DNA of 53,130 nt, the filler included, from Jimgerdemannia flammicorona (lineage: Eukaryota), in NCBI GenBank assembly GCA_003990765.1. It is 3 parts of 3 records of this genome, joined end to end, with 100 filler letters (N's around TTAATTAATTAA, not from the genome) between each part and the next. Parts side by side here need not be neighbours in the genome. Positions count along the whole stretch, not along the records: positions 35,490 to 53,130 come from RBNJ01002463.1; 2 more parts are not named here. One strand, written 5' to 3'. The notes below the pieces were generated by a model that ran no database searches, had not been told where the DNA came from, and saw only the letters and a program-made list of their open reading frames with translations. Positions 17,647 through 53,130 of the stretch are shown piece by piece. Every line of letters begins with the position of its first letter. Position 1 is the first letter of the stretch. A program made the position numbers and the translations under genes.

Positions 17647-17746
17647 NNNNNNNNNNNNNNNNNNNNNNNNNNNNNNNNNNNNNNNNNNNNTTAATTAATT
17701 AANNNNNNNNNNNNNNNNNNNNNNNNNNNNNNNNNNNNNNNNNNNN
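17647..17746. other. Assembly gap with six-frame-stop linker
   Basis: N44 + TTAATTAATTAA + N44. Confidence 0.97.
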
Positions 17747-26099: not shown

Positions 26100-26182
26100 A
26101 CATCTCTTTCCAGTACCACTCAGGTTACACAACCTTTGGAAGGCACTTTTGACATCATTTTCAGCAACAAGAGACTAACAAC

Positions 26183-28207: not shown

Positions 28208-28240
28208 AGGAAGATTGACATCATCACATATATCATCAAT

Positions 28241-31200
28241 ATGAACAGTACAACCAACATTTTCTCTTTGAATGTGAATGGGTTATGGGGCGCTTCTCGA
28301 CATAGGAACATTTTTACTTGGATGAAGGGATTGGAGGCCGATCTCTTCCTCTTACAGGATGTCCGGTGCGAAGATGACTCTGATAGGTTAGAATGGACGA
28401 AGGAATGGGGAGGTGTGGCGATTTGGAAGGGCAAGGTTGGGATTTTGGTTAGGAAAGGCAGAGGGGAGATACAGAATGTGCAGTGCTGGGGGGAGAGACT
28501 GGTCTGGGGAGAGTGGATTTGGGCAGGCTGGGAGCCAGTTACAGTTGGTTCCTGCTACTGCCCTGCGGTACGGGGTGAGAGGGTTGATTGGGTGAAAGGC
28601 TTATAGGAGAGTGGATTACTTGCGGAGGCTGGGGTGGATGTGCTAGGGGGAGATTTCAATATGGTTAGGGATATACTGCTGGATAGATCAGATGGAGGAT
28701 GAGGTGCTGAGAGCAGGAGTGGAGGGATAGTGGCATGGGAGGATGTAGAGAGGTTAAGTGTGCTATTGGATGCTGGAAGGGAGTGCTGGGGGAGTAGGAG
28801 GGTCTATACACATTGGGCAGGGGGTCTGGGGACTCGAATCGACTGGATTTTGACAGCCTGCTGCTGGGGACTAGATGTTTGGAAATCATTGGAGGTGGAA
28901 TGGTGTCTATGGTCGGATCACTGGGGGCTTTTGGGACAGGGGTGCTTTGGGGGAAGTGGGGATGGGCCTGGACATTGGTGCCTCAATTCCTCTTTGTTAG
29001 ATGATAAGACCTGGTGGGATGAGTGGGCTAAAGACATTCAGCTGAAGGTGGAGAATTGGAGGCAGGAAGGGGCTGCAGTTGGGACTCGGTGGATGAGGAT
29101 GAAGGAAATGGCCAGGATTTACTGAAAGGAGGCTGGCAAGGAGGCAGGGAAATGGCGAAAACAAAGAGTGTGCTGGGCCTCTGCTAGATTGACAAGGCTC
29201 CTGGAGGAGTGGGCAAGGCTGGTGATGTTGGAGGGGGAAGAAGATTGGAGATTAATGAGGGCGAAAATGGAGGTTGGGGAACTTCAACAGGTGCTGCAGG
29301 AGGAGGAAGAGGCAAGGGTCCAGAGTTTGGCAGCATGGCTTCATTGGCAGGATCTGGAGGAAGGAGAGAGGCCTTCCAAGCTTCTTACAAGGGCCCTTTG
29401 GGTGAGGCGGGTCCAGCAATGGTGGGAAGGGGTATTGGACTCTGAGGGTGTACTGGTGCATGGTGTACAGGACATTTTTGGATCACTGAAGGAGAGATGG
29501 AGTGGATTGTGGAGTGAGGAGAAGGGTGGGGCAGATGCCGCTACAATTGAACGAACATTGGAGGATTGGCACCCACCACAAGTTGAAGGGCTAGGGGACC
29601 TAGTGATGCCTGTACAGGAGGATGAGATCCACTAGGTTCTTGCCACGACAATGTCCGGTACAGCACCTGGGGAGGATGGGCTGCCCTGGGACTTTTGGAA
29701 GCGAATGGTTGAAGTCCCAGGGGTGATGGGAGAGATGACAGTGTTGTGTGACCTTATTCTACAGACAGGAAGATGGGTGGGGGAGCAGGACCTTGGGCTG
29801 GTGATACTGCTCTACAAAAACAAAGGAAGGCAGGAGGATTGGAAGAACTGGCAGCCAATAATGCTGCTAGATATGGACAGAAAGTTGGTAACTAAGGTGG
29901 TGGTGGTGAAACTACAGAAGGTGGCCCAGCAAGTTGTGGGTGTTGAGCAGAGGGGATTTGTAGGTGGTCGGCTCATCAGGGATGGCACTGCCTGGGTGCA
30001 TGGCATCATCGAAGGGGTGAGGACATGTGGACTGGATGGGTGTCTAGTTTTCTTGGACCAGGAGAAGGCTTATGACCAGGTGCAGAGAGTCTGGCTGGAG
30101 AAAGTCTTGGATAGAATGGGGGTACTGCATCAATTCCAGTCAATGATGGTCAGCCTACTGGAAGGGAGTAGGGCTGCACTCATGTGTAATGGACATAGAG
30201 AGGTAGTATTCCCCTTGGGAAGGGGAGTGCCCCAGGGGGATCCATTGTCCCCCATTTTGTATGCTCTTTCTCTGGAACCACTTATGGACCGAATTAGGCA
30301 GAGGATAGTGGGGCTCTCTGTCTTTGGCATAGGATGGAAGGTTGGGGCCTTTACTGATGACATGGTGGTGGGCTTGGGTTTGATTGCTGATGTTGAGAAG
30401 CTCAAGAGGACTGTGGAGTGGTATGAGGAGCATTCTGGAGCTAAGCTGAATTGGCATAAGTGTGAGACGATGGTACTTGGTAATGGCCTGGTGGGAGGGG
30501 AGGTTATAGGAACAATTGTCCCCACCGGTGAAGCAGTGCAGTACTTAGGTATCTACTTGTCAGTCTATGGGTCAGTTCTGCCCAAGCTTTGGTGAGAGCA
30601 GAGGATTGGAATCTGGGAGGAGGCTCTGCGAAGTTGGGGGGGAAGACATTTTTCTCTGACAGGGCAGGTCTCGATTTTGAATGTCTACTGGCTGCCAAAG
30701 TTGTGGTACCTGGCATATCATCTGGACTTCCCAGCCTGGGTAGTGAAGAGATTGATGAAGTCAGCGAAGGGATGGATTTGGGCTGGCAGGCAGAGTCAGA
30801 TTAGTTGGGAGACCTTGTCCCTACCAGTGGCAAGAGGTGGTCTTGGGCTGGTTGACTTCCCAAAATGGTTACACTGCTTGAGAGCATAGTGGCTGAAGAG
30901 GGTGGTGGAGTTGAGAGGAGGTGGATGGGTTCCTCTGTTACAGAAGTTATGGGAGAGGTGGGCATCACCGAGGGGCTCAACTGGTGATCTCCTCTCCTTG
31001 GTTGGGCTTCAGAACACTGCCCAACTACAATATAAAGGATTTTGGTGGGGAATTGCAGAAGGAGTGCACCGCATTGGTATTCACTGGTAGGGGAATGAAG
31101 GTGAGGAGGATTGGGACCCAGCAATGTGGAGATGGGACTGTATACTGCTGAGTGGTGCTCCTTTAGTTGAGTTCGACATTGGTGATGGAATGGAATGCCA

Positions 31201-31897
31201 AAGGGGACCAGGCCAGGATCTGTGGCCTAGCAGTTGGCAAGGAGTTGAAATTGGCAAAGAGTGGAACTGGCATAGTGTTTGGACCTGGAGCACTGCAGTG
31301 AGAGTATGGCTGCCACCAAAGTACTGGGTGGTCTGGTGGTGCATGCTGTGGAGGAACATTATGCTCAATTTTTGCTCAGGGCACCTGGTTGTAGGGGGTT
31401 GCTTCGACTGTGAGGAGTGCCATAATGTAGGGCAGGAGGGGGGATACGTACAGATGCCAGAACATTGGCTAGGAGAGTGTGAGGTGTTGGGGGATTTTTG
31501 GCAGACAATTGGAGATCGCTTAGGGGTATAGGGTAGGAGTGATGGAGTATGGGGGCAATGGGAGGACTTGAGGGTTAGATTGGTAGGGGGGATAGGGAAG
31601 GAGTGGCTTACTTTAGGTTAGGCTTTGGCAATTTGGGTGGGGCTGGCCAGTCATTGGCTATTTGTTTTTGAGGATGGGAGGAGGCAGAGCTTGGGGGACT
31701 GGTTGCTGTGATGGCATAGACTTATGGAAGATACCTTAACAGGCTGGTGGCTGGGTTGGGGGATGCAGGGTGGTCGGAGGCGCTGCTTGGTAGAGAAAAT
31801 CTGTGGGCAGAGTGGGGGGAGAGTGGAGATAGTTGGTGAAAGGGTGATTTTTATTCATGAGGAAGTAGGGAGGGGCCCCCCTGTAGGGATTGGATAG
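28241..31897 (+). pseudogene. LINE ORF2: APE endonuclease + reverse transcriptase + C-terminal Cys/His motif
   Basis: APE: SLNVNGL, FLLQDV, GGDFN, RIDWIL, WSDH. RT: APGEDGLP..FWK, WQPIMLLDMDRKL, EQRGFVGGRLI, LDQEKAYDQV, GVPQGDPLSPILY, AFTDD. C-terminus: CFDC..PEHWLGEC. Stops and frameshifts present. Confidence 0.93.
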
Positions 31898-35489: not shown

Positions 35490-36636
35490 ATTTTTATTGG
35501 AAGAGAACCTAGACTATATAGGCCAAAACCCTCCCCCACCACCCACCAAGCACTGCCCCCCCATTAACCTAGGCTAGCTATTGTCCAGCAGCTTGACCAT
35601 ACCAGGTGCAGTAGGGCTGATAAGCCCACACCTCATTCTGCACACCATGCTCTCCCTACCACCAGGGGAAACCCAACCATACGCCAACGACCGAAAGCAT
35701 ATGCCTGAGAACCCAACGTATGTACAAGGCCACACCCGAGCCAAATAAAATAGCCCCTGCCACCCCAAAGAGAATGACAGGCAAAGAAAAAACCCTCATC
35801 AAAGCACAACACGGTGGGTAGGACCTGGTTCTCCCAGTCGAGGTGAGTAAAGGACTTACAAGTGAGGCAGGAGGAAACCCCCAATACCCCACTACTCAAG
35901 CCTGCGGGCCTCGATCACGTTGCCGTGTCAGCTCCCGGTTCCAGTTGAGTGCAGCCAAGACGCCTGAAATGGGTAGCCTCGGGCCCCCTGACCCCTCCTG
36001 ATGACTGGGGCCTCACCCCGCTACCTGCCAAAAGAAGCCGAGAGTGACACCTACTACCTAACTGTGCCGCACCAATCAAAAGACCCCACCGAAGCAGCAC
36101 CTGCCCCAGCCCCGATGACCACCCCCAGCCTGGCACCCTACTGGTTCACTGTAATCGCCCTTCTGCCTATCTGTAACGGCCATCTCCCCTCCCATCCTGA
36201 CAACACCCGAAAAGCAGTCACCTACGCCAGAACCGCGCTCGCCGGGAAGCTCGCCAAAGCCAGAAGGCCCCACCACAGGCACCGAGAACCTGCAGGTAAC
36301 CTACACTGAGCACTTGATGCCCAAGGTCGGCCAACTCCCTATGTAGCCCGAGACATACCGAGACAACTCCTTGTTGGCGACGGCAAAAGGAAGAAGGTGC
36401 CGCACCAAAATGGGTGCACCCCAGATGCAGCTGAAGGCACCAGAATCCGCGAAAAAGTGGAAGAAGCACCGATCCGACACCGATAAAGGGGCAACTCAGC
36501 ACCATTGCCCTCCTCCCACCATATCCCTACAGGCACAGCAAACCAACCCGAGGTAGAGGGGGTAATATTAGGGGAAAGGGGACTCAGAAGGTTGCCTACC
36601 AAACCTTGTGACCGGTAAGGTAGTGGAGAAAGGAGC
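35490..36636 (-). mobile_element. 1.2-kb non-autonomous retroposon, copy 2 (CpG-retaining; tail lost in the gap)
   Basis: Colinear with 23385-24536, with the same 5' terminus (GTAAGGTAGTGGAGAAAG on the plus strand). Confidence 0.88.
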
Positions 36637-36637
36637 C

Positions 36638-39600
36638 TGATAACTATATATATCTATAATAATTTATTATATAACAATAAGCTACTAGAAATAACAATAG
36701 AATTTCCAATATAGTATATAGTCAAAGATAATATATATATATAGTATAATTATATATATATATCTAATATATCATATTTAGCTATAGTTCTAAATTTATA
36801 TAAATATCCTCTATACTAAGTATATTATAATCTCAGTTCTATTTTCTCTATAACAGTTCTAGTTTTTTTAAGAGAAAGTGACTAAGTTTTGGTAATTCTG
36901 ACAGATCTAAAGTAGCTCAAAGAGATACTTATAGTTTAAGTATTCTTGAAGGATTTCTAAGAGAAAATATTCTAAGCTTTATTTAAGTAAAGAATAAGGA
37001 TATTTATATAGAATCTGAAAAAAAGATCTGAAAGGATCTAAGAAAGAAGAAAAAAGTCAAGAAATAAGTTTTTAGTAAAGATGACTAATAGAATTCTACA
37101 ATATTCCAAAAGATTCTATGACTAGTTAAGATAAAATACTTAGTATCAAGAAAAGACAAGAATATTATAAAGATGTCTTGATATCAAGAAAAGATTTTTA
37201 GATATTCAGAAGATATTGGAATATAGTAGAATATTCAGAAAAGGACAAGAAAAGACTAGAAAAAAAGTATAAAAAAGTACTAAGATTAAGATATAACTGT
37301 GAAATTATTATATTCCTCTCTTTTTAAGAACTAATATTCTTATTAAATTCTTAGATAATATAAAACTAAATATACTTAATCAAAATTTCTCAAACTTATA
37401 TTAGTATATTAGTGGGAACTAATTATTCTTATATAGAGCAGAGAACCTATTATCAGACTAACTAACTAAGAGAGATTGAACTTAGCTAGTAGCTTAATTT
37501 CAGTAGACTTCTTATTCATTAGATATTCTGCTAGTTCTGGAGTTTCAAAGTAAACTTCTGATATATAAAATACCAGTCATTGCTATAGATCATCAACAAT
37601 CTAAGAAAGTTACTATAGAGATTGAATAATATATTTTATCTTAAAGTCTTGAATTAGGTCTTAAGAGTTCTTAAGATTAACCAGTGGTTTCTAGATAGCA
37701 TCATATTTGGGATAGTCCATCCACTTGATTAGGTATTCAGAACAATAGTAGCAAATTTATTTGTTAAGAATTTTCTTAACTTTATACTCAATATGATTTT
37801 CAATAATTATAGAGATAGATAGCTTGGAAATTTAATCAGAGAGTAGTAATAACTGGTTCCAGATCTTAAGATATAATATATAAAAAACTAAATATACTCT
37901 CATGGTTTCAGATAGCTTAAGATAGTAAGAGAAAATAGAGACTTATTTAGTAATCTCAAAGAATCTAATATACTTAGGTTAAAATTTATTTGATAGATAG
38001 TTAACTTGAGATTTTATCTTAAGGTTTTTGATAGATAGTAAGACTTAATTACTAATAGTATATGTGATATTATAGTACTTCTTATCAGTATACTTGGTTT
38101 GATACTATTGAGCTTTCTGGAGATTTATAATAGTAATTTTAAGTAGTTTATTCATTTTGTCTATAAGGTTTTTGATAGTAAGAACTTATATTTGACTACT
38201 TTTCTTAAAGGAGACTGGACTTGCAGATATCTCAGAATCTTAATTATAGAGTAGCTAAAAAGGGAAAAGACTAATAGATGATTAGATAGTATTATTATAT
38301 ATAAATTTTATATAAGTCAAGTAATAATCCTAATTATCTTGTTTATATAAAATATAGTTTCTGAGTATTTGTTCTAGAGTTCTGTTCATACATTTGGTTT
38401 ATCCATCAGTTTGTGAATAAAAGGCAGTAGATATAGCCAGTTGGATTCTCAGAGTTTTGAAAAGAGTTTATCAGAAGTAACTAGAGAACTTTGGATCACA
38501 GTTACTGACAATTACTTATAGTAAGCTATAGTGATAAAAGATGAACTTGAAGAAGATTTTTACAATCTCAGGTATAGTAGTATTGGTAGTAGTTGATTTG
38601 ATACTATAGTCTTAATCAGATAGTCAATAAATATGACAATAGTATTAGTACTAGAATGGATTTGTAATAGTTGAGTTATAAAATCTCTTGTAATACTCCT
38701 AAATGAATCAAATTGAATTGAGGGTCATTCAAATTGAATTAAATTGGGGATTTTTTAATTTGAATCAAGTTTGAATTGAATCAAATTCAAATTAAATTAA
38801 TAGTCCAATTCAAACTCTATTTTCAAAATGTAATAACTTGACTAATACATGTCCAAATTCAATAATCTTTAGCTTGTTAGATTCCCCTATATAAGAGAAA
38901 TCTAACAAGCTAAAGATCATTAAATTTGGATATATATTTGTCAAGTTATTATATTTTGAAAAATAGTATTTGAATCAGACCTCAAATTGAATTAGTCTTT
39001 AATTCAATTTGATCAATTCAATTTATTAGGAGTATTAGTCTCTTGTAACTTATTCAAATTTCTTAGTTGGAATTAATAGTATTTATAGCAAACTAGCTAG
39101 TACTTAATTGGTAGATTTGTTACATTAGTAGAGATTATAGCTAGTAATATAGTTCTTAATTTTCTTAACTATACTTGGTCAATAGTAGTGATGCTGGATA
39201 TTCTTGATAGTTTTTACAATTCTAAGATAACTAGTAAAAGGGGAGTCATAGTGTTCTTATAGTATCTTATAGTATAGATTCATATTATCAAGTAGGTAGA
39301 CTTTGTCTTGATGGTAGATCAGATTGTTCTCAATAGTATATATATCTTTGAGCTTATTCAAGAGACTCTAGTAATGAAGATATCTTCTTTGTAAACTTAT
39401 CTGATTTGGTCTAGAAATTCTAGTACTAGGGTGATATATATATGATTGTGGTAAAGTCTAAATATCTAAATAAGATATCTAGTACTGTAAGTATTTTGCC
39501 AGACTTATAGATGATTATTGAGTTGAAAGTTTAAAGTTTCAGGCTCTACTTAGTTTATAAATATGATAGAGTAGATTGGGTGTTGATATACTTAAGTACT

Positions 39601-39670
39601 TAATGGTCAGTAATGATATCAAACTTGATATCTTTTAGATAGTATCATATAGAGGTCACTGAGTTCTTCA
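36638..39670 (-). mobile_element. Chromovirus-type Gypsy 3' half (RNase H, integrase, chromodomain, PPT, 3' LTR at about 36638-37312), heavily mutated
   Basis: Minus-strand relics: FDIITDH*VLKY..YKSGK (RNase H); SNCDPKFSS..LAISTAFYSQTDG*TKYMNRTLEQILRNY (integrase); YLIKWMDYPKYDAI*KPLVNL (chromodomain); purine tract at 37313-37325. Confidence 0.85.
38691..39037. mobile_element. hAT-family MITE, older relative of 19215-19638
   Basis: Decayed TIRs TAATACTCCTAA / TTAGGAGTATTA, 8-bp TSD (A/G)TCTCTTG (38683-38690 and 39038-39045), and the same central palindrome. Confidence 0.9.
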
Positions 39671-39959
39671 AATATATCAGATTCTCTTCAAGGTATATCT
39701 CTTAGACTAATTACAAGTTTGTTATAAGTAAGTTTTTATTAGAGCCTTCTCAAGGTCTTATAGTTCTCAAACTTCTTATCTTTAAACTATCTTATTATAT
39801 CTTAGATTTCTTGCATAGAATTGAGAGTAAGTAAACTTAACTGACTTTATTTTAAAGAAAATAAGAGAGATATTTATACAAAATATAATTCAATAGTTGT
39901 TAAGTTATAAAGCTAAATATAAATTTCAATAACTAAATAAAATACTGGAATACAGAAAA

Positions 39960-41260
39960 CTATTGTTATAAATATAGGTTTAAGTGTCTGTACAAATAGT
40001 TGTATAAGTTCAGGATGTTAGTAGAATTTCAGTAATATAGGAAAAGGATACCAGAAGAATTTCTGAGTTATGCAAGATCAGAATATTAGAAGAATAATAG
40101 TAATATAGAAAAAGAATACTGGTAGAATCTGGTATTACTAAGAACTTAGAGCAGAAAGTTCAAGACTATAGAGACTTCATCTTTATTACTATTATTAAGG
40201 CCTAAGATTAGAGATAGGATATCTTTGAAGGAGATGAGGTCTATGAATATTTTGTCCATCTCATCACATATATTACATATTTTGTATGCTTTGCACATAT
40301 TATATAAAATGACATCATCACTGATGACATTATTACATTTGGTAATAGAGAGAATAAGGAGGTCTGGAGCTCTCCAATCTATGACATTCTCTTCCCTATA
40401 CTGCTAATACTATTCAAAAATAAGCTACTCATTACTGATATATCCTACTAACTACTCTCTCAAGTTATTCTATCTCTCTCCCTCTCTATCTCATGGCTAT
40501 ACTTCTAGATAACCCTTAGAAGTCACTGTATATTTTACACTCTCTCAGCCAATGTTTAAATATCTGTATAATTTCTCTCTCTTACTCTATATTATAACAA
40601 TTCTTATACTCAAAAATCCCTCCTTCTACTAAGTATTCTGATCTAAAGTTCAATATGATATTCTTTCTTAAAATATATCACTATACTACTCAGAACTTTA
40701 GAGAAAGTCACTGCTATATCTCAGTACTCTAAGATCAGACTCTAGCTCAGTTCTATACTCTATTAATACCTGCTAACTACCAGTCTATTGGCTATAGATT
40801 TTGTCTTATCTCCCTTTGATACTCTATATCAGAACTAATATCAAAGTTCATTAGCAGTAAACTACCCAATAGAAATATATCTCACCTTTATATCACAGGT
40901 CTCTATTATACTATTCTCTCATTATTATATCAATATAGACTAATATAGTGAGCTCTCTCTACTACTCTCTACCAGAATTCTCTATACTATAAGTACCTAC
41001 TACTTCTTAGTCTAACTATTAATATCAAATCACTTAAAGAATCTTTAGGAGAGAATCTTGCCTCTCAGACCTTTTGCATCAATAGTATCTATTTTCCACT
41101 CTATAACTCAATAGCTCTCTTCAATCACTAAGCTCTATAATAATATAATCTCTATCAGATCTAAATCTCCTCTATCTACTAGAGTCACTAAAATCTCCCA
41201 ACTTATCTGACTCTGTCTTCTGATCCAAATCTAATCTTTAGCTATCTTCAATAATTTCTT
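39960..41260 (+). mobile_element. Possible further LTR-element fragment (LTR end, PBS-like site, decayed gag-like region)
   Basis: ...ATTACA at 40337 is followed by TT-TGGTAATAGAG, then a C-rich decayed stretch. No clear protein motif. Confidence 0.35.
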
Positions 41261-41333
41261 TACCACATATATCAGAAAGTCCAAGTAATATACCAGATAT
41301 TATAACTTTAGCAATCAGTAGATACATATGTAT

Positions 41334-42285
41334 TGTAATAGTTGATCTGAATTAATAATATAAATCAGAGAAATAGACATTTGATTGCAGTATCTGAATC
41401 TGATTTCCAAATATGTATAGTATAGTCTTACAAATAGTAGTTATTTTACAAATATTAAAGTTTTGATAAATATTACTATTTTTACAAATATCAAGATTTC
41501 ATAGATATTAAGAATTAACACTTATGAAAAGTGACTTATAAGAAATATAGTCATAACTTAGCTATCTTATAATATATAAATCTATATAAATATCCTCAGT
41601 ATCTAGAGTGAATAAACCTCAAGTTAAAAGAGTTTGAGTCTTACTCTGATAGTCTGATGAGATTAGATAAATACTACTTATGTATAATTCTGAGAAGTCA
41701 AGAAGAGTTATGGAAATCTACTATATTTCTCTAGTTATATATCTGCTATATTATAACTTAGTACTTATTGACTAGTAATTTAAGATAAATTTCTCACTTT
41801 CAAGCTGAATAATAAATAATTGATATAATCTATTATCTATACTCAATGAGCCTGGAAGCTATCCTATAATACTGAAGTCTATTATCTATATTCAATGAGT
41901 CTGAAAGCTGTCCTATGATATATGATTTATTACTCCAATTCAAAGTCTATTACCCATACTTGATGAGCCTAGAAGCCATCCTATAATATATAATTTACCA
42001 CTCTATCCTAAAGTCTATTACCTATATTTGATAAGTCTGAAAGCCATCCTATGATACAATTTGCTGTTCTGAAGTCTATTACTCATACTTGATGAGCCTG
42101 GAAGCTATCCTATAATATATAATTTACTACTATCTGACTTTTAAAAAAAGCTACCATCTGACTTTTAGAAGAAGCTGCAATCTGACTTTTAAAGATATAA
42201 TCTATTACTTACACTTAATAAGTCTGGAAGCTATCCTATAATGGTTCTGATTTCTTTAAGAAGAAGCAGCTAAATATGGAAGTTT
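41334..42285 (+). repeat. LTR-like fragment related to the dUTPase-Gypsy LTR, with a ~50-70 bp tandem array
   Basis: TATAAAT...GAGTGAATAAACCTC (41585-41620) matches LTR A 11247-11283. About six units of AAGTCTATTAYCYATAYTYRATGAGYCTGRAAGCYATCCTATRAT at 41825-42245. Confidence 0.6.
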
Positions 42286-42287
42286 TA

Positions 42288-43545
42288 GTTGATCTAAAGT
42301 AGCTCAGAGAAATACTTAAAAGTTCAAGTATTCTCAAAGAATTTCTGTAAGAAAAATATTCTGAGCTTTATTCAGACAGAGAATAAGGATATTTACATAT
42401 GATCTGAAAGAAAGATTCAGAAGGATCTTGGAAAGAAAGAGAAATGCCAAGAAATAGATTCTTGATAAAGATAATTAATATGATTCTATAATGTTCCAAA
42501 AGGTTCTATGACTAGCTAAAATAAGATGCTTGGTGCTAAGAAAAGACAAGAGTGTTCTAGTAGTGTCTAGGCACTAAGAGAAGGTTTCTAAGCAAGTAGA
42601 CAGTGGTAGAATATAGTAGAATATTCAAGAAATGATAGGAAAAGGTTAACTAAAAGATGCAAAAATATACTAAGACTAAATATAATTGTGAAATTATTAC
42701 ATCTCTCCCTTCTTAAGAACTAATATCCTCATTGAGTTCTTAGATAATATAAGACTAGATATACTTAATTAAAATTTCTCAAACTTATATCAGTATATTG
42801 ATAGGAATTGGCCATTCTTATATAGAGCAGAGGGTCTATTATCAGACTAATCAACTGGGAGGGATTCAAACCCAGCTAGTAGCTTTATTTTGATAGACTT
42901 TTTTGTTTATTAAATATTCTGCTAGTTCTGGGATCTCAAAGTAAACTTCCAATATATAAGGTACTGATCATTGCTATAGGTCATCAACAATCTAAGGAAG
43001 TTATTACAGGAATTGAGTAATGTGTTTTATCTCAAAGTCTTGAACTAGATCTTGAGAGTTCTTGAGGTTGATCAGTAGTTTCCAAATAACATCATATTCA
43101 GGGTAGTCTATCTACTTGACTAGATATTTAGCAGATTCATTTGTTGAGAATTTTCTCAGCTTTATACTTGATATAGTCTTCAATAATCACAGGGGCAGAT
43201 AGTTTGGAAATTTGACCAAAGTAGAGCAGTAACTGATTCCAGGTCTTGAGATATGATATATAAAAGACTAGATATACTCTTATGGTTTCAGGTAGCTTGA
43301 GGTGGTAGGAGGATACAGAGACTTGCTCAGTGATCTTGAAAGGTCTAATATACTTGGGTTAGAACTTGTTCAATAGGCAGTTGACTTGAGATTATATCTT
43401 GAGATTCTTGGTAGATAGTAGGACTTGATCTCTAAAAGTATAAGTGATATCATGGTATTTCTTATCAACATACTTAGCTTAATACTGTTGAGATTTTTGA
43501 AGATTCATGGTAGCAATCTTGAGTAGTTTATTCATTTTGTCTATT
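42288..43545 (-). mobile_element. Second chromovirus copy (integrase C-terminus, chromodomain, PPT 42702-42714, partial 3' LTR starting at 42701)
   Basis: Colinear with 36905-38165. YLVK*IDYPEYDVIWKLLINL; AAGAAGGGAGAGA followed by TGTAAT on the minus strand. Confidence 0.85.
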
Positions 43546-43825
43546 TATTTCATTTTCTTATTTCATAATTGATATATATTATTTATATAAGGGGACTAAT
43601 TGTGACCTTAGTAGAGACATTGTTACCAGTAAGAAGAGGAGAGTAGAAGTAGTCCAGGATAGAGAGAACCAGGTTCTGGCCACCTTGGCTCTACTAAGGT
43701 TAGGTACTGGATAGCCTGAGGCTACTCTGTTATATGGCCTGACCTCACTTACTTCTTGTCAGGAAATCTGGTGAATACTTTTTACTGTTTATTATATAAT
43801 TATATTCTGAATAAATGAGAATAGA

Positions 43826-43870
43826 AAAAACAAAAAACAAAAAACAAAAAACAAAAAACAAAAAACAAAC
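43826..43870 (+). repeat. (AAAAAAC)n tract, possibly a retroposon tail
   Basis: About six units preceded by AATAAA near 43811. Confidence 0.65.
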
Positions 43871-44375
43871 AGTTTATATTAAGTATAATAGTTGTTTTAA
43901 ATATAAATAATATATTTGCTTATAGAATAAACAGAGCAGTTATATACCAAATTAGTCATATATTCTTAGTCAAATCTACAAACTATTACTTAATTAATAT
44001 ATATAAATATCTCAGTAAATTATATTTAAAATAAATCAGCTTTTAGTTAAATATAAAATATAAAAAGTCTCTCTCAATATATATATTTCTCTTGAGTTCT
44101 TAGTAATGATATATAAGTTACTCTAGTATTTCTAACTAAACTTCAGAAGTCTAACTAACTTCTACCAAACTGAGAACTAGTATATAAATCTAAAAAGAAA
44201 ATTTCTTTAAATCTGAATTATATATAAAAGATTTAGTATATATATAAAAAACCAAGTCTCTTGAGTAATTATGATTATAGAAGAAAAAAACCACCTTTAT
44301 TTTACTATAAAGAAACTGTACTTTTTCAATCTTAGTAAAACTTAATAAAAGAGCAATTAAAAGACTTCTTGATAT

Positions 44376-46920
44376 TGTGATAAGCAAATAGTATAATATA
44401 ACCAGATAATATGAACTCTCAGTATAGCATAGTTATCTATGACCACTATACTTATAATTAGCCAAGAATACTAAATCAGGGTTATTTATCTGTATCCTAC
44501 AGATACACTTATATCCTGCAGACACACTCATATCCTGTAGACACACTCATGTCCTGCAGACACACTTATATTCTGAGGATACATCTAAACATTACTAGAG
44601 ATAGTAAATCTATAATTATCTAGATAGTAACCAGATAGCAACTATAATATATAAAATACCCCAGAGATAAGAGTGAATAAACCTCAGTTCAAATTGAAGT
44701 ACAAACCAAAGAAGTCTCTAAAGATTGAGCATTGGTCTCCTTATTTCTACTCTAGTCTACTTTCCAATATAAAGTCTTGGTTTGCTTACCAGATAAGCCT
44801 GAAGATTTGCTATCAAAGTTCAAGCTGCCACTTAAGGAATAAGCTGCTAATTCCAAGTTACCCATATTCTCAGAGAGCCTTAAGGAATCTTGCTATAAGC
44901 CAGTCTACTAGATGTAACTTCACAGTAATTCATTCATACAAATGAAGTCTATCTTTGATGCAACTTTGCTAAGAAGAGAACCTTTTCCAGTAAGCTGCCA
45001 ATTTAGAAAGAATCTGCTACTAGTTATTATTCTCAAAAGAACTAATTCAGGAAGAATCTGTATCATCCAAGTTATCTGAATATCCACCACCTGAGTTATT
45101 TATCTATTCTCAGTGAGCCCAGTCCAAGAAGAACTCATACCATCTAAGTATTATTCCCAGTGAGCTGAAGCAGAAAAATCTATACCATCCTTTATTTCCA
45201 GCTACTGATTCAGAAGAATCCATACCAAATCAAGTTATGTGTCAAAATTATTTCACTAGAGATTATATACTTTTGGAAATATGACTGTCATATATAAAGA
45301 GATCACTATACTATACAGAGATCATTATACTATATAAAGATTACTTACTACTTAGAAGAAAAACCATTAAATTGCTAGACTATCTCACATAAGGAATCCA
45401 TTTATGCTACATAGAGATTACTGTACTATATAGAGATTATCATACTATATCAAATCATTTACCATATACAAAATCACCATTATACCCAAGAACTCATCCC
45501 AATAAGAAAATCACCAGAATTGCTTACAGATATCTAGCTTTAACTATTATACTACTAAATACCAAGGACCTCAGGATTTATAGAATATTTTGTTGCTTTT
45601 TGACAAAGTAACTAAAGGCTTAAGCCAAACTACATCCATCCTCAACCTTGTAATTTGTCTCTATTGAGCCAGGCATATTACATTTAGAGACTTAACTAGG
45701 AAGATTTTAAATTGATATAACTTTTTAGCTTACAAGAATCCACAGTTAAATTGGATATATTTGATATAATATCAATCTCTGCCACTATAAGAGAACTAGT
45801 TATTATTAGCATTTAGATAGAAAGAGAAGTAATTACCTCAAAACTTGCTAATTATACAGTATCAGAAGAATCCTAACCAGAACCAGAAGCTAGTATAACC
45901 TGAAATCCCCAATCAGATCAATCAGACAACACAGGTAGCCCTGCTGGAAATTTTGAAGAACTTGTCTAAGAACTAGAAGATCTCATTACATAAGTCTGAA
46001 ATCCTGCAGCCAGACATCCCAGAGAGGTTCCACTAGTCTCACCCATTGAACCTTTACAACTAGCTCTTACAGAATTAAAAGTAGCTCCTTTAAGAATATC
46101 TAGGTTCATTTTACTTTATCTAAGGTCCAGAACACTATCCTCAAGATACCCAAGTATCTCCATTTCTAGTAATAGTTCAGAAAACAAATCAGAGTCAGAA
46201 TCTGAATCAGAATCTGGACCAGAACTAGAATTAGAAGAAAGTGATAACAAAATAGCCACCTTATTGCCAACCTTTACAGAATATCCAGAGGAAGATCCTA
46301 GAGAATTCCTTGATGGAATTGAGAGAATTGCAGCTTTATGGAATCTCTCAGATGAAAGAAAAATCACCATCTACAAGACCTAGCTCAGAGAACCAGCCAG
46401 AGAAATTTTCCACCAAATAGCAAGAGACCCACACTCAGAACTAGTAGTATAAATACAAGCAGCAGTATTTTATGAGCTGAAATATGAAGCCATAGTCTGC
46501 TGACTCATTAAAAAATATATAGAAAATGAAACCCACCACAAAGCTCAAGAATCTAAAAGAGAATATATGCAGCTGAGTTTAATGTCACTAACCAAGACAT
46601 CATAGGTCCAATGACTTTTATGAATGAGATTTCCCCAAACATTACCCAGTATGTCTGCACTCTAGATATCAGAAGGTCTGAAGAGCAAGTAGATATAGCT
46701 TAAAAATTCTTTAATATCAGACAAGAAACTACCTAGAGTGACCATGATAAAAAGGATGATAAAGAAGACATTCTTGTCAAAGCCCTATAAGGACTCCTTC
46801 AAGGATAAGAAAGATCTGAAGAAAGAAGGCTAGCCAAAGAAGGAAAGAAGGACAGGAGTGAAATCCAAGACCTTAGTTCTAAGTTGGACCAATTGGTTAG
46901 ATAGATTGAAAAACTCACTA
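44376..46920 (+). mobile_element. Ty3/Gypsy copy D (LTR 44376-45682, decayed PBS, Gag N-terminal half)
   Basis: Colinear with copy A 10844-13648. Carries the 20-bp array at 44490-44580; the PBS has mutated to TAGAGACTTAACTAGGA. Confidence 0.9.
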
Positions 46921-47097
46921 TAATATTTTAGCATAGTTTATTTCTTTTCTTTATCTTTCTTCAATATTCTACAACCTTCTGGTACTTTCCAAATGCTTAG
47001 AAATCCTTTCTTGGTACTGAGCATTCTCTAGTACTTATTTAGTTAGTCACTGATTGTCCTGGAAACTTGTAGAACTTTATTTGTCATCATTTGTCAT
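46919..47097 (+). repeat. Short fragment resembling the chromovirus LTR, interrupted by the hAT element
   Basis: atattctac..gcttagaaa..tttcttggtac..tagttagtca..ggaa..tagaa follows the reverse complement of 42480-42700. Confidence 0.45.
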
Positions 47098-47114
47098 TAG
47101 TGCTCCAAATAAGT

Positions 47115-47500
47115 CAATTCGAATCAAATCTGGATTCGATTCATCACATGATGGTTTGATTCGAATCTCAAATCCGAAGCCATCCGAATCAACTCAGATT
47201 TAATCTGAATCGCCCCATCTGAATCACCCCATCCGAATCACCCATCCGAATCACCTCAATCCGAATCACTCAATCCGAATCACTCAATCTGAATTGCCCC
47301 ATCTGAATCACCCCATCTGAATCACCCATCTGAATCACCCATCCGAACCACCCCAATCCAAATCACTCAATTCGAATCACTCAATCTGAATCACTCAATC
47401 CGAATCACTCAATTCGAATCCTCCAATTCGAATTCTCCAATTTGAATCCTTCAATCTGAATTCTCATCTGAATCCTTCAACCGAATCCTCCAATCCAAAT
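47115..47500. repeat. hAT subterminal repeat array (ATCYGAATCAC-like, 13-14 bp period)
   Basis: atccgaatcacccatccgaatcacctcaatccgaatcactcaatccgaatc..., more than 20 units. Confidence 0.9.
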
Positions 47501-47599
47501 CTTCCACATGACTCATATGCCGGACGTGTCTACAATACAACACACATACATGCATATACACACACATATATACATGCACACACAAACACGCAAACACAC

Positions 47600-50183
47600 A
47601 TGTCGACAGATCAGTCTTCAACAGTTCACAGTACTGATGATGCTTCAAGTCAAACATCTCTGATAGTTCCACACCTTCCATGTAATCCTCACTCCAAAAT
47701 CTGGCAACATTGTGCTAAGATAGGAAATAATGTTGTTTGTAATTATTGCAGGTAAAAAATTAAGATGTACCTATTGACACTTTGTTTTGACACACATATG
47801 ATATTTTTTTAACATACATATGATATTGTTTCATCCACCCCCATGAACTGCACCAGCCAGAAGTTCAAAATGCTTGGGGGTACAACTTCAAACATGAATT
47901 GACACATAAAAGACAAGCACTCTGACAAAATCAAAAAGAATACGGAGACAAATAAAATCGACATCCAAGCTGTAGTGGGTATGTTTATCTGATTGCCTGA
48001 CCATTTCTGTACCAACAATGCCATTTAATCAAAAATATTTAGCCATACTCTTTGGCAGAATTTCGAAATTGACTCATTCGCTGGATTGTATGCACAGACC
48101 AGCCATTCACAACCATCGAGAGTGATCAATTGTATAGCATCTTTGGCCTCCTCAAGCATGATTTATATTTGCCAAGTACCAATACTATTTGCAAAGATGT
48201 CCTGGAGGCCTATAGGAAGGAGCACGACAATCTCTACCAGACACTTCAGGTAAAATAAGGACAGCACTGTGACCTTTGCAAGCTGAATTATATAAAAGAG
48301 TTCACCAATTTAACCTCACATTCAATAAGCAGAATTTGGCAGGCAAAATTTCGTTTATGATTGACACATGGACATCCCCCAATGCAATTTCATTTCTGGG
48401 CATTACTGGTCATTGGATTGATCTCAATTGGCAGCTTAAATCTCTCACCCTTGACTTCGTCAAACTTGCTGGCCCTCATTTTGGAGACAACATCGCAGAT
48501 ACTTTTATTAGTTGTATCTGGGAGTTTGGGATCACTACCAAGATAAAAAAGGGGGGCTTGCCATCAGGTTGGTATTTTGAGAGAGGTCCTAAACCAAACC
48601 AGATTTTATTGATTACTTATTTTCATATAAAATTATCAACCAAATATTTCAAGTACAGATTTTGGCCATTACAATGGACAATGCTACAAACAACTCAACA
48701 TTTTTCCAAGGTTTAGCAGCTAGCCTCAAACAGGAAAACGTGGCCTTTAGTACAGAAAGCTACCGTGTGTGATGCCAGGCCCACGTACTGAACCTCGCTG
48801 TTCAGGACTATCTTACACACATAGACAAAATATCCGAGAGAAGAGGGGCTCTGAGTATAATTTCCAAGCTGCGCAAACTGGTTGTGTTGGTCTGATCATC
48901 TCCACAATGATAAGACAAATTCGCTGCGCAGTGTAGGGCAATCAGTTTAGCCCCAAAAGAGCTTATATTGGACATCTGTATGCATTGGAACTCAATATTT
49001 ACAATGATCCAGCACGTGCTGGAGTTTTCTGTGGTATGCATTCTTTTTTTCTTTGGTCGGCTGAAGCAACTGTTTCAGATAATGGAAGATTTATTTAAAA
49101 AAAAAAAAAAAAAAAAGCCAATAGATTCAATGATGGCTGCCAACAAGGAAATATGGGCTGAGGCTCTAGGTGAAAGTGAGTAGGATGTACTTAGGAATGT
49201 TGTCAGAGTTTTGGAAGTAAGTGGTAGTTGCCCTGGCTCTACACTCATTTTGTCTGCCTCCGTACAATGCAACACCTCACCACATATAACTGCCAGTGTT
49301 TCGATGATTGTACGAAGGATATAGTCAAACAAACGACCCTGACAATAAGCTCTGCGATACTGGTATACAACCTTCTGATTGATCAGCTAGAGGACAAGCT
49401 CGAGGACAGGCTGGAGGGTTGCGGTGATTTATGGTTAAGCTCAGATCAGAGAGACACTGTAGAGGTTGCTCTAAGCAAGCTTAGAAAATACTACTCCCAA
49501 ACAGATACTGCCATATACTCAATCAGTATAGGTATGTTGATGTCAGTGTATGGCCATTACCCCTTCCAAAATAGAGGAAACCCCGCAAAAACTCACTCTT
49601 CTTTTCTTCGAACAGTGCTGGACCCACGCTTAAAGCTACAATACCATAAAGATCAGGGCTGGGAGCAGCACTTCATTGAGAGAACCAAGCTGGCCATAAT
49701 TGAAGTATACTGGAAAAACTATGCACTGCCGCAAGGTTCTGGCCAAAGTCTGGACGAATATGCCGAGGGATCCCTCCTGTCCCACATTTACTTTGGCAGA
49801 AAGAGGAAGAGGGAACCATCAGTGAAAGAGCTGCCATCAATAGACGAACTTACTATTTACCTTGCCAGTGACTGCGTGGTCCTGCTGGAGGGCACAGAGG
49901 TACTCAACTGGTGGAAGGTGGGTTGTCAGGCGGGTGTTGGGTCAATTTAACCCACCAATCTAACCACCGCTCTACCCACTGGGGCATGCAGCTACATCAA
50001 ACAGACTTCCCCAGCCTGTATAGTATGGCTCAGGACTACCTGGCGATTCCTGCCTCCAGCACTCCTGTCGAGTGGATGTTCTCAGGTAGGGTGGACCTCA
50101 TTGCCCCAAAGAGGTGTGCACTGAATGCTGAGATAATCCAGGCATGTATGTGTCTGAAGTCTTGGTGGGGCTCGGGCTGCTAA
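47600..50183 (+). pseudogene. hAT transposase with BED zinc finger and dimerisation domain, multi-intron
   Basis: IWQHC..VVCNYC|intron|GGTTSNMN*HIKDKH (BED finger); WIVCTDQPFTTIE; KISFMIDTWTSPN..FLGITGHWID; ILAITMDNATNN; CQAHVLNLAVQ; HWNSIFTMI; LDPRLKL; LNWWK..FPSLYSMAQDYLAIPASSTPVEWMFS. Confidence 0.95.
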
Positions 50184-50319
50184 AATTCAGCAGGTCTGTG
50201 GATAAGTTGGTTGGCCTTGTGGAATATTTAATATCTTTCAAAATAATAAAAAGGAAAAAAAAACCTGAGGACTCGGCCTGGAGTTTGCAGCCAAAGTAGG
50301 GTGGGGTTAGTGGCAGCGG

Positions 50320-50790
50320 CGGAGGGAGCACACAATATTTGTAGCCCTCAGCTAGCAGCAAGGGGCAGCTCCAAGCTGCCAGTGCCCGGGTCAGTGGGTG
50401 GGTTGGTGGGTGGGTCAGTGGGTCGGTGGGCAGTGGGCAGGTCAGCAGAGAGAGCGCGCAAAATTTGCAGCCCTCTGCCGGCAGCAAGGGGCAGCCCTAA
50501 GCTGCAAGTGTCCAGGTTGGGGGGGTAGGCGGAGGGAGCATACAAAATTTGTGGCCCTCCACTAGCAGTGAGGGGCAGCCCCAAGCTGTCAGTACCTGGG
50601 TCAGTGGGTGGGGTCAGTTGGCGGGCACGGGGTCAGTAGAGAGAGCACACAAAAATTTGCAGCCCTCTACTGGCAGCAAGGGGCTGCCCCAAGCCGCAAG
50701 TGTCCGGGATAGGCAGGGCAGGCGGAGGGAGCACGCAAAATTTGCGGCCCTCTGCCAGTGGCATAGGGGCAGTCCCAAGCTACCAAGAAG
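50320..50790. repeat. GC-rich minisatellite: five ~60-bp cores arranged as higher-order dimers
   Basis: The core GAGCRCRCAAAATTTGYRGCCCTC..GCAGCAAGGGGCAGCCCCAAGCTG occurs at about 50326, 50452, 50536, 50643 and 50729. Confidence 0.85.
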
Positions 50791-51068
50791 TCTGGGGCGG
50801 AGGGTTCTTCTGGTGGTCGGAGGGTGCTTCTGGTGGTTGGAGGGCATTTCCAGCAGTTGAAGTCACCAGTTCGGGTCCCATGGGCACCCCGGCCCTGTGC
50901 CACAGTGCTGCACCAGTGGTACTACAGAGCAGGACCAAGGGGCCGATAGGGCCCTGTATAATAGCTAAGCTAGTGCTACATAAGAGGTGCCCGGCCCAAC
51001 CCCCCCACATAAAACTGCCCAACCTGTACAAAATGGCTACCTAACCCTTATGAAAGATTGTCTAACCC

Positions 51069-52320
51069 TCACAAAAACTGCTCCACCTGCCGGTCCCAGG
51101 CCTTGATGAGTCTGTTGTCCATTGTGAGTGCGACAACTGTTGTGTCCGAGCTCTCCTCAAAGGCGACAGTGCCATGGTGGTCATGTGGTTAGAATAGGAT
51201 GGCCATGTTGGCTGCAAATGGGACCCTGAAACCATAGGTGAGGTCATACCAGACTCCGTCGCTATCCTCCCAGGTTGGGCCCTTCCTTTCTAGAATGTAA
51301 AACATTACCGGGGTGATGTTGTTGTCTGTGTGTGTGGGCAGAGAAAGGTTGCGCCTGACATATTCTGATGTGACGTGAGCGTATGGTTGGGTGAACCCTT
51401 GGCCCAGGACCTCATACTGCCAGGCTGTACTGGTGGATACCTGCCCTTGGTCCAGCCCCAGGAGCCCCAGCTTGGAAACCTGCCAAAACGGATGGCAACT
51501 GGTTAGTTCTTTTTTGCATTCAGAGGGGCAGAAACCCCCCAGACCACAGAAACCCCCTGGGCTGCAGCACTCCAAAAAAGTGGAGCTTCTCACCTCATAT
51601 GGTATGCTAAATTGTACCAAGAATGTATGTACAGCCATGCCGAGATCACCACTAAGCTGGCCTGCCATATGCTCTACCAATCTGCTCAAAGAACCCCAGA
51701 TCATAGCTGCCATCGCCGCACAGGCTGTGTCATGCTCGCGCACAGTTTGCTCTTCGATAACACTTCTAAAGTTCTGGTAGGGGTACAGAATCTTGTGCAT
51801 CCCTGGAATTGTATCAAAAAGAGTATGTCAGCGAAGAGTGTGATTTATCTGGGGAGGGGTTAAAAAAAAAAAGGAGACAAGTGCAGGGGATTTTGGAACT
51901 CCGGAACCCACCCTTCACCAGTGTTGCAGTATACCCAATTCCTGTCCAAACCCCCCCTCCTTGCTTTTTTTGCCCCCTCTTTCCTGCTACTCAGTATTTG
52001 ACACAATCCTCACAAATCTTGTTGATGTGGTGGCAAAGCTCATCACCGTAGAGGTTCCTTACCACTATCGCAATCACCTCTTTATGTTCATTAATAAAGA
52101 TATGGTTCTCTTTATTGTTAGTTACTCCTGCTGGCCAATGGACCCCTTGGTCAAGTACAATTGGCTCTGATTCGAATGTAGACCCCCAAGCCTTGATGAT
52201 GATGCTAATACTACTCATGCTGAACATCTTGCCCTTGAATTTCTCTATTTGATCAGATGCCAGACATGGTTGAACTTAGGTAACTTTGAACTCTCCTTTC
52301 TAATAGAACTGAGCCCTGAT
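51069..52320 (-). pseudogene. Putative TET/JBP-like 2OG-Fe(II) dioxygenase; exons 52320-51912, 51802-51594, 51479-51069
   Basis: GT-AG introns with GCTGAC/ACTAAC branch sites join the exons in frame. The last exon has N.SLPTHTDNN (HxD) ...GVWYDLTYGFRVPF..MAILF*PHDHHGTV..TTVVALT; upstream are EVIAIVVRN and KRG..G.WTGIGY. A few stops are consistent with C>T changes. Confidence 0.55.
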
Positions 52321-52334
52321 CTGAGGGACCAAGA

Positions 52335-52470
52335 TAAGTATGTGGATGGGTTGTGTGCAGGCAGGTTGTGTGCAGGCAGGTTGTGGGCAGATTGCATGCA
52401 GGTGGGTTGCATGTGGGCAGGTTGTGTATGGACAGATTGCATGTGGGTTGCATGTGGGTGTGGGTGTTTT
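52335..52470. repeat. Intronic degenerate ~11-15 bp repeat (GGTTGYRTGYRGGCA)
   Basis: ggttgtgtgcaggcaggttgtgtgcaggcaggttgtgggcagattgcatgcagg. Confidence 0.7.
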
Positions 52471-52519
52471 TTAGGGGGAGACCACATAAAAATGAAATTA
52501 AATAAAACACGGAGATGGG

Positions 52520-53130
52520 TATTTCAGAAAAAGAGCATGAGTAAGTGAGCTGTATGCTGACAAGTTGCATGCCGATGAGTTGCACGAGTTGCACAAGAAT
52601 TGCTCATGAAGGCTTGCTTCTGTTCCTTTTGAGACCTCCACCATATGATGCATTGACTCAACAGCTCAGCCACTAAAGGTATGCCCCACAACATCCACCA
52701 GTCTTTCTTCATCTTGACCAGATGTTGTGAATAAAGTTGGCAGATCTCACCATAGAGCTGTGGACTCTAAGAAAAGCATGAGGTGAATTGGATTATGCTG
52801 GGGAAGTTTAAATAAACATAAGTAAATAAGTGGCAGCCGAGTGAGCAATCTACATCTACTATCGGCTGCTCCAAAAAGACTGCTGCATACATAGCTGTGA
52901 GGTCTGTAAATTCCAAGGTCTGAAGGGCCACCATGAGTTGTTGCTGGAATTCTCCCTCATCCCCACCATCACCATCACCACCACCACCACCGTTGCCCCT
53001 TTGGCTCTTGATGAGCAGCTTGTGTGCTGTCCATATGAGAAAGAATCTAACATTGTCAGCAGAGAGTATGTTTCCACCTCGAATACTCCCTCTTTTGATG
53101 ATCATTGCAGGGTGAAAAATGAGTAGACTG
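52520..53130 (-). CDS. Upstream minus-strand exons: either the N-terminal part of the dioxygenase-like gene or a second cargo gene; product unknown
   Basis: Open frames at 52767-53105 and about 52524-52765, separated by a GT...TTCTTAG intron-like stretch. No motif recognised. Confidence 0.35.

Follow-up and report, generated by a model that had tools for sequence, protein, structure and literature searches.

Identity of a gene beside a hAT transposase

What did the gene that lies tail-to-tail with a hAT transposase in the genome of Jimgerdemannia flammicorona encode, and which element, if any, carried it there? The question is raised by a stretch of 53,130 nucleotides of this genome (GenBank assembly GCA_003990765.1; three joined parts, with positions 35,490 to 53,130 taken from RBNJ01002463.1), which at its full length is referred to below as the window. 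Our analysis indicates that the locus at 51069–52694 on the minus strand is probably a full-length but decayed fungal gene copy, with 371 codons in four exons, which once encoded a TET/JBP-like Fe(II)/2-oxoglutarate dioxygenase. The gene model was derived by tblastn of related proteins against the window and explicit splicing by coordinates, and comprises the following parts.

52608–52694, minus strand: exon 0, with the ATG at 52692–52694; codes for an N-terminal helix and lies beyond the span given to the gene in the preliminary description of this locus
52321–52607, minus strand: intron 0, 287 nt, with the donor ATGAGC (not GT) and the acceptor CAG
51912–52320, minus strand: exon 1, containing three in-frame stops
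51803–51911, minus strand: intron 1, 109 nt, GT..AG
51594–51802, minus strand: exon 2, reading GMHKILYPYQNF...FSIPYE; matched by the relative P0005 with 51% identity
51480–51593, minus strand: intron 2, 114 nt, GT..AG
51069–51479, minus strand: exon 3, the catalytic half, with the terminal TGA at 51069–51071

When the translation of 51072–51827, read through the stop codon, was compared with 1.84 billion representative proteins, six matches were obtained at E ≤ 0.001: P0001 (136 aa, 80% identity, E 5.2e-64), P0002 (E 2.3e-30), P0003 (374 aa, 32% identity, E 3.5e-16), P0004 (E 1.6e-09), P0005 (55 aa, spanning exon 2, E 9.4e-09) and P0006, a hypothetical protein of Moniliophthora perniciosa (E 7.6e-04). 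Because of these homologues, sequence comparison indicates a real and conserved gene rather than a chance pattern. A scan of metagenomes returned two contigs only, L001 (3.7 kb) and L002 (2.9 kb), which were counted as one locus since they are 99% identical over 2.7 kb. At 560–1953, L001 carries an apparently intact four-exon relative of the gene in an AT-rich genome; beyond this relative, the two contigs share no further similarity with the window. These AT-rich relatives may come from Mucoromycota, one ESM Atlas cluster (score 0.94) being a lead only. The window stretch itself is represented by small shares in three DNA runs of one soil-metagenome study (0.14, 0.06 and 0.01), and no RNA run was listed in the run search.

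The preliminary description had proposed three exons that splice in frame at canonical sites. This was confirmed for the blocks 52320–51912, 51802–51594 and 51479–51069 with their two GT..AG introns (109 and 114 nt). The intron 1 junction (K-G|M-H) agrees with P0003, with the related protein P0007 and with an exon break of L001, and the same three relatives agree with the intron 2 junction (P-Y-E|V-S). The three blocks fill the span 51069..52320 originally assigned to the gene, but the gene is longer, having a fourth exon upstream at 52694–52608.

Evidence for this additional exon comes from the N-terminus of the relatives. Local alignment of 52667–52605 with residues 7–27 of P0003 gave a score of 44, as compared to 27 ± 4.4 for shuffled sequences, none of which (0/300) reached 44. 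The same N-terminal helix is encoded by a separate exon in L001, where it is followed by a GTAAGT intron ending just before ARHQF; in the window gene, the intron 0 acceptor CAG precedes ATC AGG GCT CAG TTC (I-R-A-Q-F), and intron 0 has the same position and phase as in L001. The joined N-terminus scored 57, a value which none of 1000 shuffles (23.7 ± 4.2) attained, while the region 52225–52398 by itself did not rise above shuffles (scores of 18 and 20 versus a mean of 20). Intron 0 contains 15-bp tandem repeats at 52349–52447. Spliced in this way, the 371-codon reading and P0003 (374 residues) are collinear over their whole length in a global alignment.

The reading is interrupted by four in-frame internal stops, TAG at 52300–52302, TAA at 52276–52278 and TGA at 51991–51993 in exon 1, and TAA at 51189–51191 in exon 3, where the preliminary description had recorded a single one. 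In view of these stops and of the AT that replaces GT at the intron 0 donor, the copy is a pseudogene, irrespective of whether the exon 0 ATG or the ATG at 52225–52227 is taken as its start. TGA 51991–51993 aligns with Arg in P0003 and P0007; TAA 51189–51191, which sits between the DGVWYDLTYGFRVPFAANMAILF run and HHGT, corresponds to Gln in P0001. Observed/expected ratios in the gene are 0.32 for CpG and 1.58 for TpG. The positions of two stops, which face Arg or Gln in relatives, and the strong CpG loss of the region suggest decay of the C-to-T type.

Relationship to transposon-borne TET/JBP genes

Kojima 2025 (PMC12730594), in the sections available to us, describes 11 lineages of DNA transposons in which complete copies contain TET/JBP genes, and distinguishes three enzyme types. 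For the PE type, HxE is the stated hallmark, the structures are reported to be closest to CMD1, NgTET and CcTET, and a weak profile match to CMD1 (HHpred E 1.4) is also mentioned. In our searches, a sequence profile of the first seven sequences reached the Paramarasmius protein P0008 at E 7.1e-19. P0008 has 25 relatives in Agaricomycetes at E ≤ 0.001, of which 7/25 come from one Paramarasmius genome; Lentinula, Rhodocollybia, Collybiopsis and Laccaria are among the sources of the others. Relatives of this kind include annotated “hypothetical proteins” encoded on contigs of up to about 1 Mb. P0023 and P0020 are, by eye, near-identical to the rows Helitron2-1_LB and PlavakaB-1_GyCo in Table S1 of Kojima 2025 (PMC12730594), as far as that table was accessible.

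The clade of the window gene and the PE type, neither of which matches a standard profile, thus share homology at the profile level, to which hhalign comparison of the HxD clade (6 rows) with the PE set (25 rows) assigned a probability of 97.7% (E 1.5e-12, 268 columns). They also have a common layout, consisting of a GxSAG-like segment, a helical insert, the metal-binding His, GGxFY..YG.R/G.V...N, HGT and then Arg. The family is multi-copy in Agaricomycetes. The PE type differs in sequence, however: the window clade shows HxD, as does the window gene, in place of the HxE given as the PE-type hallmark in the available text of Kojima 2025 (PMC12730594), and identities between the two groups amount to 14–21% (27% to P0006). 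A tree of the catalytic half was built from 31 rows, P0005, P0012 and the exon 1 piece of the window being too short for inclusion. In this tree, a branch with 100/100 support separates the six HxD rows from the 25 PE rows. The words THTD, THVD, AGYTV and PYRNF did not occur in Table S1 of Kojima 2025 (PMC12730594), by term search of its accessible part. Most of the feature neighbours that the ESM Atlas gives for P0007 are clusters from Basidiomycota, some with 15% PF20515 or 16% PF12851 members, which we take as a lead only. We consider it likely that the window gene is a member of a small clade which has retained HxD and which is a distant sister of the HxE-type PE genes of transposons.

Iyer and colleagues are said to have described, in 2014, the AG-type TET/JBP genes of Kyakuja and Zisupton (KDZ) elements, to which the preliminary description had referred. 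These resemble the genes discussed here in being basidiomycete, multi-copy, transposon-linked TET/JBP genes, and CcTet is a close relative of the AG type according to Kojima 2025 (PMC12730594, sections available). However, the AG-type Kyakuja-1_SuBr has none of the motifs of the window gene in what could be consulted of Table S1 of that paper, and no KDZ transposase was found in the window.

Predicted fold and catalytic residues

The closest full-length relative, P0003 (374 aa), was modelled with AlphaFold2 using a 34-row alignment; the model had a predicted local distance difference test score (pLDDT) of 74.7 and a predicted template modelling score (pTM) of 0.80. In a Foldseek search against the PDB, rows 1–21 were all CcTet, CMD1, NgTet and TET2 (E 2.6e-08 to 7.2e-06), followed by PHD2 as the first row outside the TET family (E 9.7e-06). 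VIA-align, run independently of Foldseek on 48,161 PDB representatives, gave Z values of 18.8 for TET2 (262 aligned, root-mean-square deviation 3.5), 17.2 for NgTET1, 17.0 for CMD1, 13.7 for CcTet, 13.2 for FTO and 12.8 for ALKBH1, placing TET2, NgTET1 and CMD1 at ranks 1–3, at least 3.8 Z units above the first non-TET row; VIA-align of Foldseek’s own list agreed. P0003 is therefore predicted to carry a double-stranded beta-helix fold nearest to that of solved TET/JBP members.

The best structural matches, over residues 33–374 of P0003, were human TET2 (4nm6, 9hxv), NgTET1 of Naegleria (4lt5, 5cg8), CMD1 of Chlamydomonas (7cy4) and CcTet of Coprinopsis (7vpn, 7w5p). These enzymes share the HxD...H metal triad with the window clade; on the other hand, identities to the P0003 model in the structural alignments are 10–16%, there is no match at the sequence level, and the window clade lacks the Cys-rich domain of TET2. 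Since CMD1 adds a glyceryl group instead of oxidising 5-methylcytosine, as stated in the available sections of Kojima 2025 (PMC12730594), a TET-like fold is not enough to tell the chemistry.

A three-frame reading of the minus strand at 51000–52400 contains PTHTDNN (HxD), with the His codon at 51330–51332 and the Asp codon at 51324–51326, the strand run DGVWYDLTYGFRVPFAANMAILF, and HHGT with the distal His at 51174–51176. All three motifs listed in the preliminary description (PTHTDNN, the strand run and a distal HGT) were thus recovered, and the window gene possesses the HxD...H iron-binding triad of TET/JBP dioxygenases. This copy could not translate the distal His, which follows the premature TAA at 51189–51191. 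The Arg that had been thought to be missing after HGT was located 21 residues past the distal His (TMDNR, 51111–51113); judged from its conservation, it may be the residue that contacts 2-oxoglutarate.

Among the filled rows of the 34-row alignment A2, the first His is conserved in 31/32, the distal His in 30/31 and the Arg in 28/31, and the window gene has all three. The carboxylate column (32 filled rows) comprises 25 Glu, five Asp, one Asn and one Thr: Asp occurs in the window gene, P0001, P0002, P0003 and P0007, Asn in P0004, and Glu in the 25 PE-type rows. At the same position, the reading of contig L001 has Asp where the protein P0004 has Asn. The intact ancestor most likely would have bound Fe(II) via His-x-Asp and the distal His and 2-oxoglutarate via the downstream Arg, and would most likely have oxidised a methylated DNA base, with 5-methylcytosine as the likeliest candidate, by analogy to CcTet, NgTET1 and TET2.

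Several observations weigh against the assignment of the locus as a full-length TET/JBP-like gene. Exon 0 and the two upstream stops depend on a short alignment, the exon 0 junction having been picked after the alignments had been seen, and the alternative start at ATG 52225–52227 would leave two stops rather than four. No Pfam family, Tet_JBP (PF12851) and 2OG-FeII_Oxy_6 (PF20515) included, matched five pieces of the window, P0001–P0008 or the 34 rows of A2 at E ≤ 1, and the seven-sequence profile found 0 matches in the PDB. The model of the window’s own exon 3, computed with X at the stop, had a pLDDT of 39.5 and was discarded as unusable, so that the fold claim rests on P0003, which is just 32% identical to the window gene. 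CcTet, the only fungal structure, fared no better than FTO in VIA-align (13.7 versus 13.2). As to the substrate, Kojima (PMC12730594, sections available) cannot exclude another base modification for PE-type enzymes. The proposal of a TET/JBP-like 2-oxoglutarate/Fe(II) enzyme in the preliminary description is nevertheless upheld by the significant profile link to PE-type proteins and by the fold modelled for P0003, although no match to the Tet_JBP and 2OG-FeII families was obtained.

The neighbouring hAT element

The features of the hAT neighbour and of the sequence between the two genes are as follows.

47098–47501, plus strand: hAT left end, with the terminal inverted repeat (TIR) TAGTGCTCCAA at 47098–47108
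47600–50183, plus strand: hAT transposase pseudogene (start approximate), with the stop codon at 50181–50183
50184–51068, no strand assigned: spacer between the two stop codons, 885 bp, 57% G+C
19215–19638, no strand assigned: hAT-family miniature inverted-repeat transposable element (MITE), 424 bp, with the inverted ends TAGTGCTCCCA and the perfect 8-bp target site duplication (TSD) GTCATAGG

Marks of the hAT superfamily are present in the form of a dimerisation domain (Dimer_Tnp_hAT, E 1e-13, in 49872–50180), the TIR at 47098 and the 8-bp TSD of the related MITE. Behind the left TIR, at 47202–47501, a 14-bp subterminal repeat is present in about 22 copies. The MITE, which has GATTCGA-type subterminal repeats, is a non-autonomous relative of the same hAT family; from its inverted ends and its perfect 8-bp TSD it follows that the family is canonical and makes 8-bp duplications. 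For the hAT element itself, TTTGTCAT at 47090–47097 is a candidate 8-bp TSD, judged from the left side alone. This word occurs twice, 10 bp apart, at 47080–47097 right before the left TIR. The transposase core contains in-frame stops at 48770–48772, 48893–48895, 48908–48910 and 48911–48913 in translation, and the transposase is dead. With four stops and a non-GT donor in the TET-like gene and four core stops in the transposase, a present role in counteracting silencing, as originally suggested for the gene, is not supported.

The TET-like gene and the transposase are arranged tail-to-tail, and the distance of about 0.9 kb first estimated between gene end and transposase stop was measured as 885 bp between the stop codons. 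Degenerate, GC-rich repeats that are 67–83% alike and partly inverted occupy 50318–50785 of the spacer; the rest of the window contains no copy of them. Between 50184 and 53130, neither an inverted TAGTGCTCCAA (with up to two mismatches) nor an inverted subterminal cluster was present, and nothing was found there by blastn-short with the 400 bp of the hAT left end and the MITE, nor by searching for the TSD word TTTGTCAT. The earlier statement that no right hAT TIR lies between the genes holds for the whole of 50184–53130, a TIR before 51069 having been looked for as well. The right end, if it exists, must therefore lie beyond the window. Neither the hAT element nor the TET-like gene occurs a second time in the window. 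An open reading frame (ORF) at 52770–53129 on the minus strand, with 120 codons, open at the window end and containing a Gly/Asp-rich run, may not be a gene; it gave no Pfam match, showed no resemblance to TET-like family members and lacked neighbours in the Atlas.

Which element, if any, carried the gene

A tentative preference goes to the possibility that the gene came from a different DNA transposon (Zisupton, EnSpm, Plavaka, IS3EU or Helitron-like) which abuts a 3'-truncated hAT element, the adjacency being an accident of nesting. The nearest published relatives, the PE type, ride these five kinds of element and not hAT, according to the available sections of Kojima 2025 (PMC12730594), and the window is full of transposon remains (a Ty3-like reverse transcriptase with dUTPase, LINE-like APE and reverse transcriptase segments, and the MITE). 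Base composition moreover shifts right past the hAT stop. We lean mildly towards such a junction of two elements because of this jump in G+C content and because the carriers of PE-type genes are not hAT elements. Nevertheless, 50184–53130 contains no transposase, helicase or terminal structure of an element of this kind, and the only other ORF of this region (52770–53129, minus strand) matches nothing.

The preliminary description had taken the gene to be cargo of this very hAT, with the right end beyond 53130, and to have once protected the element from methylation silencing, which appears unlikely. No right TIR or inverted subterminal cluster separates the transposase stop from the window end, and the gene could for this reason lie inside the element. 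The two genes show similar decay, with four stops in each and CpG observed/expected ratios of 0.43 and 0.32, which makes one lean towards hAT cargo. There is also a precedent: Kojima 2025 (PMC12730594) reports, in the sections available, 20 families of hAT7 with a TET gene, distributed over six Puccinia species, so that the view in the preliminary description that no hAT linkage was established is outdated. In our literature search this was the only paper that joined JBP, hAT, transposons, fungi and dioxygenase, and no JBP paper on Mucoromycota, Glomeromycotina, Rhizophagus or Gigaspora was retrieved. The Puccinia elements resemble the window locus in combining a hAT transposase and a TET/JBP-like gene in one neighbourhood, and as their consensus sequences measure about 8.6–9.6 kb, an element reaching past the window would not be unusual. 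Against hAT cargo stands the absence of a right end, a TSD pair or a second copy from the window, as well as a jump in G+C content from 0.42 (hAT) to 0.57 (spacer) just past the transposase stop, as expected at the boundary of two elements. The metagenome locus L001/L002 likewise showed no transposase domain in the four flanking ORFs scanned. The published cases differ, too, as far as the accessible text and Table S1 of Kojima 2025 (PMC12730594) go: hAT7 has a 7-bp TSD and a consensus start of CAACGGTGGG or CAACAGTGGG, whereas the MITE of the window hAT family has an 8-bp TSD (GTCATAGG) and ends in TAGTGCTCCCA; the TET of hAT7 is of the PU type and shares none of the motifs of the window gene; and carriage by hAT7 was demonstrated with complete elements, while of the two ends of the window element the left one, at 47098, is present.

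We are doubtful, too, whether the gene stood on its own, as one of a dispersed family of host genes, and, with no transposon involved, died in place in a methylated, repeat-rich region. The four flanking ORFs of L001/L002 without a recognisable transposase domain and the occurrence of relatives as ordinary annotated “hypothetical proteins” on contigs of up to about 1 Mb would fit such a history. L001 and L002 are short, however (3.7 and 2.9 kb), related PE-type genes are multi-copy (7/25 matches from one Paramarasmius genome), and PE-type genes are documented inside complete transposons in the available part of Kojima 2025 (PMC12730594).

Rather improbable, in our estimation, is a more specific scenario, in which a canonical hAT with 8-bp TSDs, unrelated to Puccinia hAT7, acquired, in an independent event, a TET/JBP-like gene of an undescribed fourth type (the HxD sister of PE), and the window holds the left two-thirds of a dead copy.

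That the gene encoded some other 2-oxoglutarate/Fe(II) oxygenase, such as an AlkB/FTO-like repair demethylase or a protein hydroxylase unrelated to 5-methylcytosine, is very improbable: the missing Tet_JBP profile match and the Z values of 12–13.5 that FTO, ALKBH and PHD structures also reach with the P0003 model speak for it, but TET2, NgTET1 and CMD1 lead all 48,161 structures by the margin given above, only TET-family chains occupy Foldseek rows 1–21, and the feature neighbours of P0007 include, as a lead only, the clusters with PF20515 or PF12851 members.

Composition of the window and other elements

CpG observed/expected was 0.20 for the whole window, as compared to 0.43 for the hAT element, 0.31 for the spacer and 0.32 for the TET-like gene. 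Elsewhere it was 0.00 at 38–46 kb, 0.48 at 36001–38000 and 0.62 at 1–2000. The earlier remark that this block keeps more CpGs than its neighbours therefore applies in relation to the window average (0.31–0.43 versus 0.20), but not to 1–2000 and 36001–38000, which keep more. Where CpG is depleted, TpG and CpA are in excess, both across the window and at 38–46 kb. The 8 kb at 38001–46000, with 26–31% G+C, contain zero CpG, although their composition predicts about 40 per 2 kb.

Transposon debris makes up the remainder of the window. At 14216–17691 (plus strand) there is a Ty3/gypsy-type element, in whose long ORF a dUTPase (E 2e-27) precedes a protease-like segment and a reverse transcriptase, the latter matching the Ty3 reverse transcriptase in the PDB at E 1.8e-45; a second dUTPase fragment lies at 18163–18519 on the opposite (minus) strand. 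The GC-rich block at 26153–31528 (plus strand; 50–57% G+C, GC skew +0.34 to +0.51) is probably an element resembling long interspersed nuclear elements (LINE-like), with a weak APE endonuclease match at 28208–28603 and a reverse transcriptase at 29636–30592. A further reverse transcriptase fragment (RVT_1, E 9e-12) was found at 5323–5730 (plus strand). Neither an Rfam family nor a tRNA was detected in the window.

Significance

Transposons with a TET-like enzyme of their own are believed to use it to remove the methylation by which they are silenced. The locus is a modest addition to this picture, transposon-borne TET genes, including those carried by hAT elements, having already been published (PMC12730594, in its accessible sections), and by itself it adds little, as the copy is dead. 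What the locus draws attention to is a small HxD clade near the PE type, which is missed by Pfam models and absent from the table of Kojima 2025 (PMC12730594) in the form available to us. For genome annotation, the locus teaches that genes of this kind evade domain searches, and that their recognition needs comparison of folds or of profile with profile. Should there be intact members of the HxD clade that turn out to travel as mobile cargo, more enzyme types and carrier elements would have to be catalogued; and if the independent capture by a hAT element should turn out to be true, the habit of carrying anti-silencing cargo would reach one more lineage of transposons and one more clade of enzymes.

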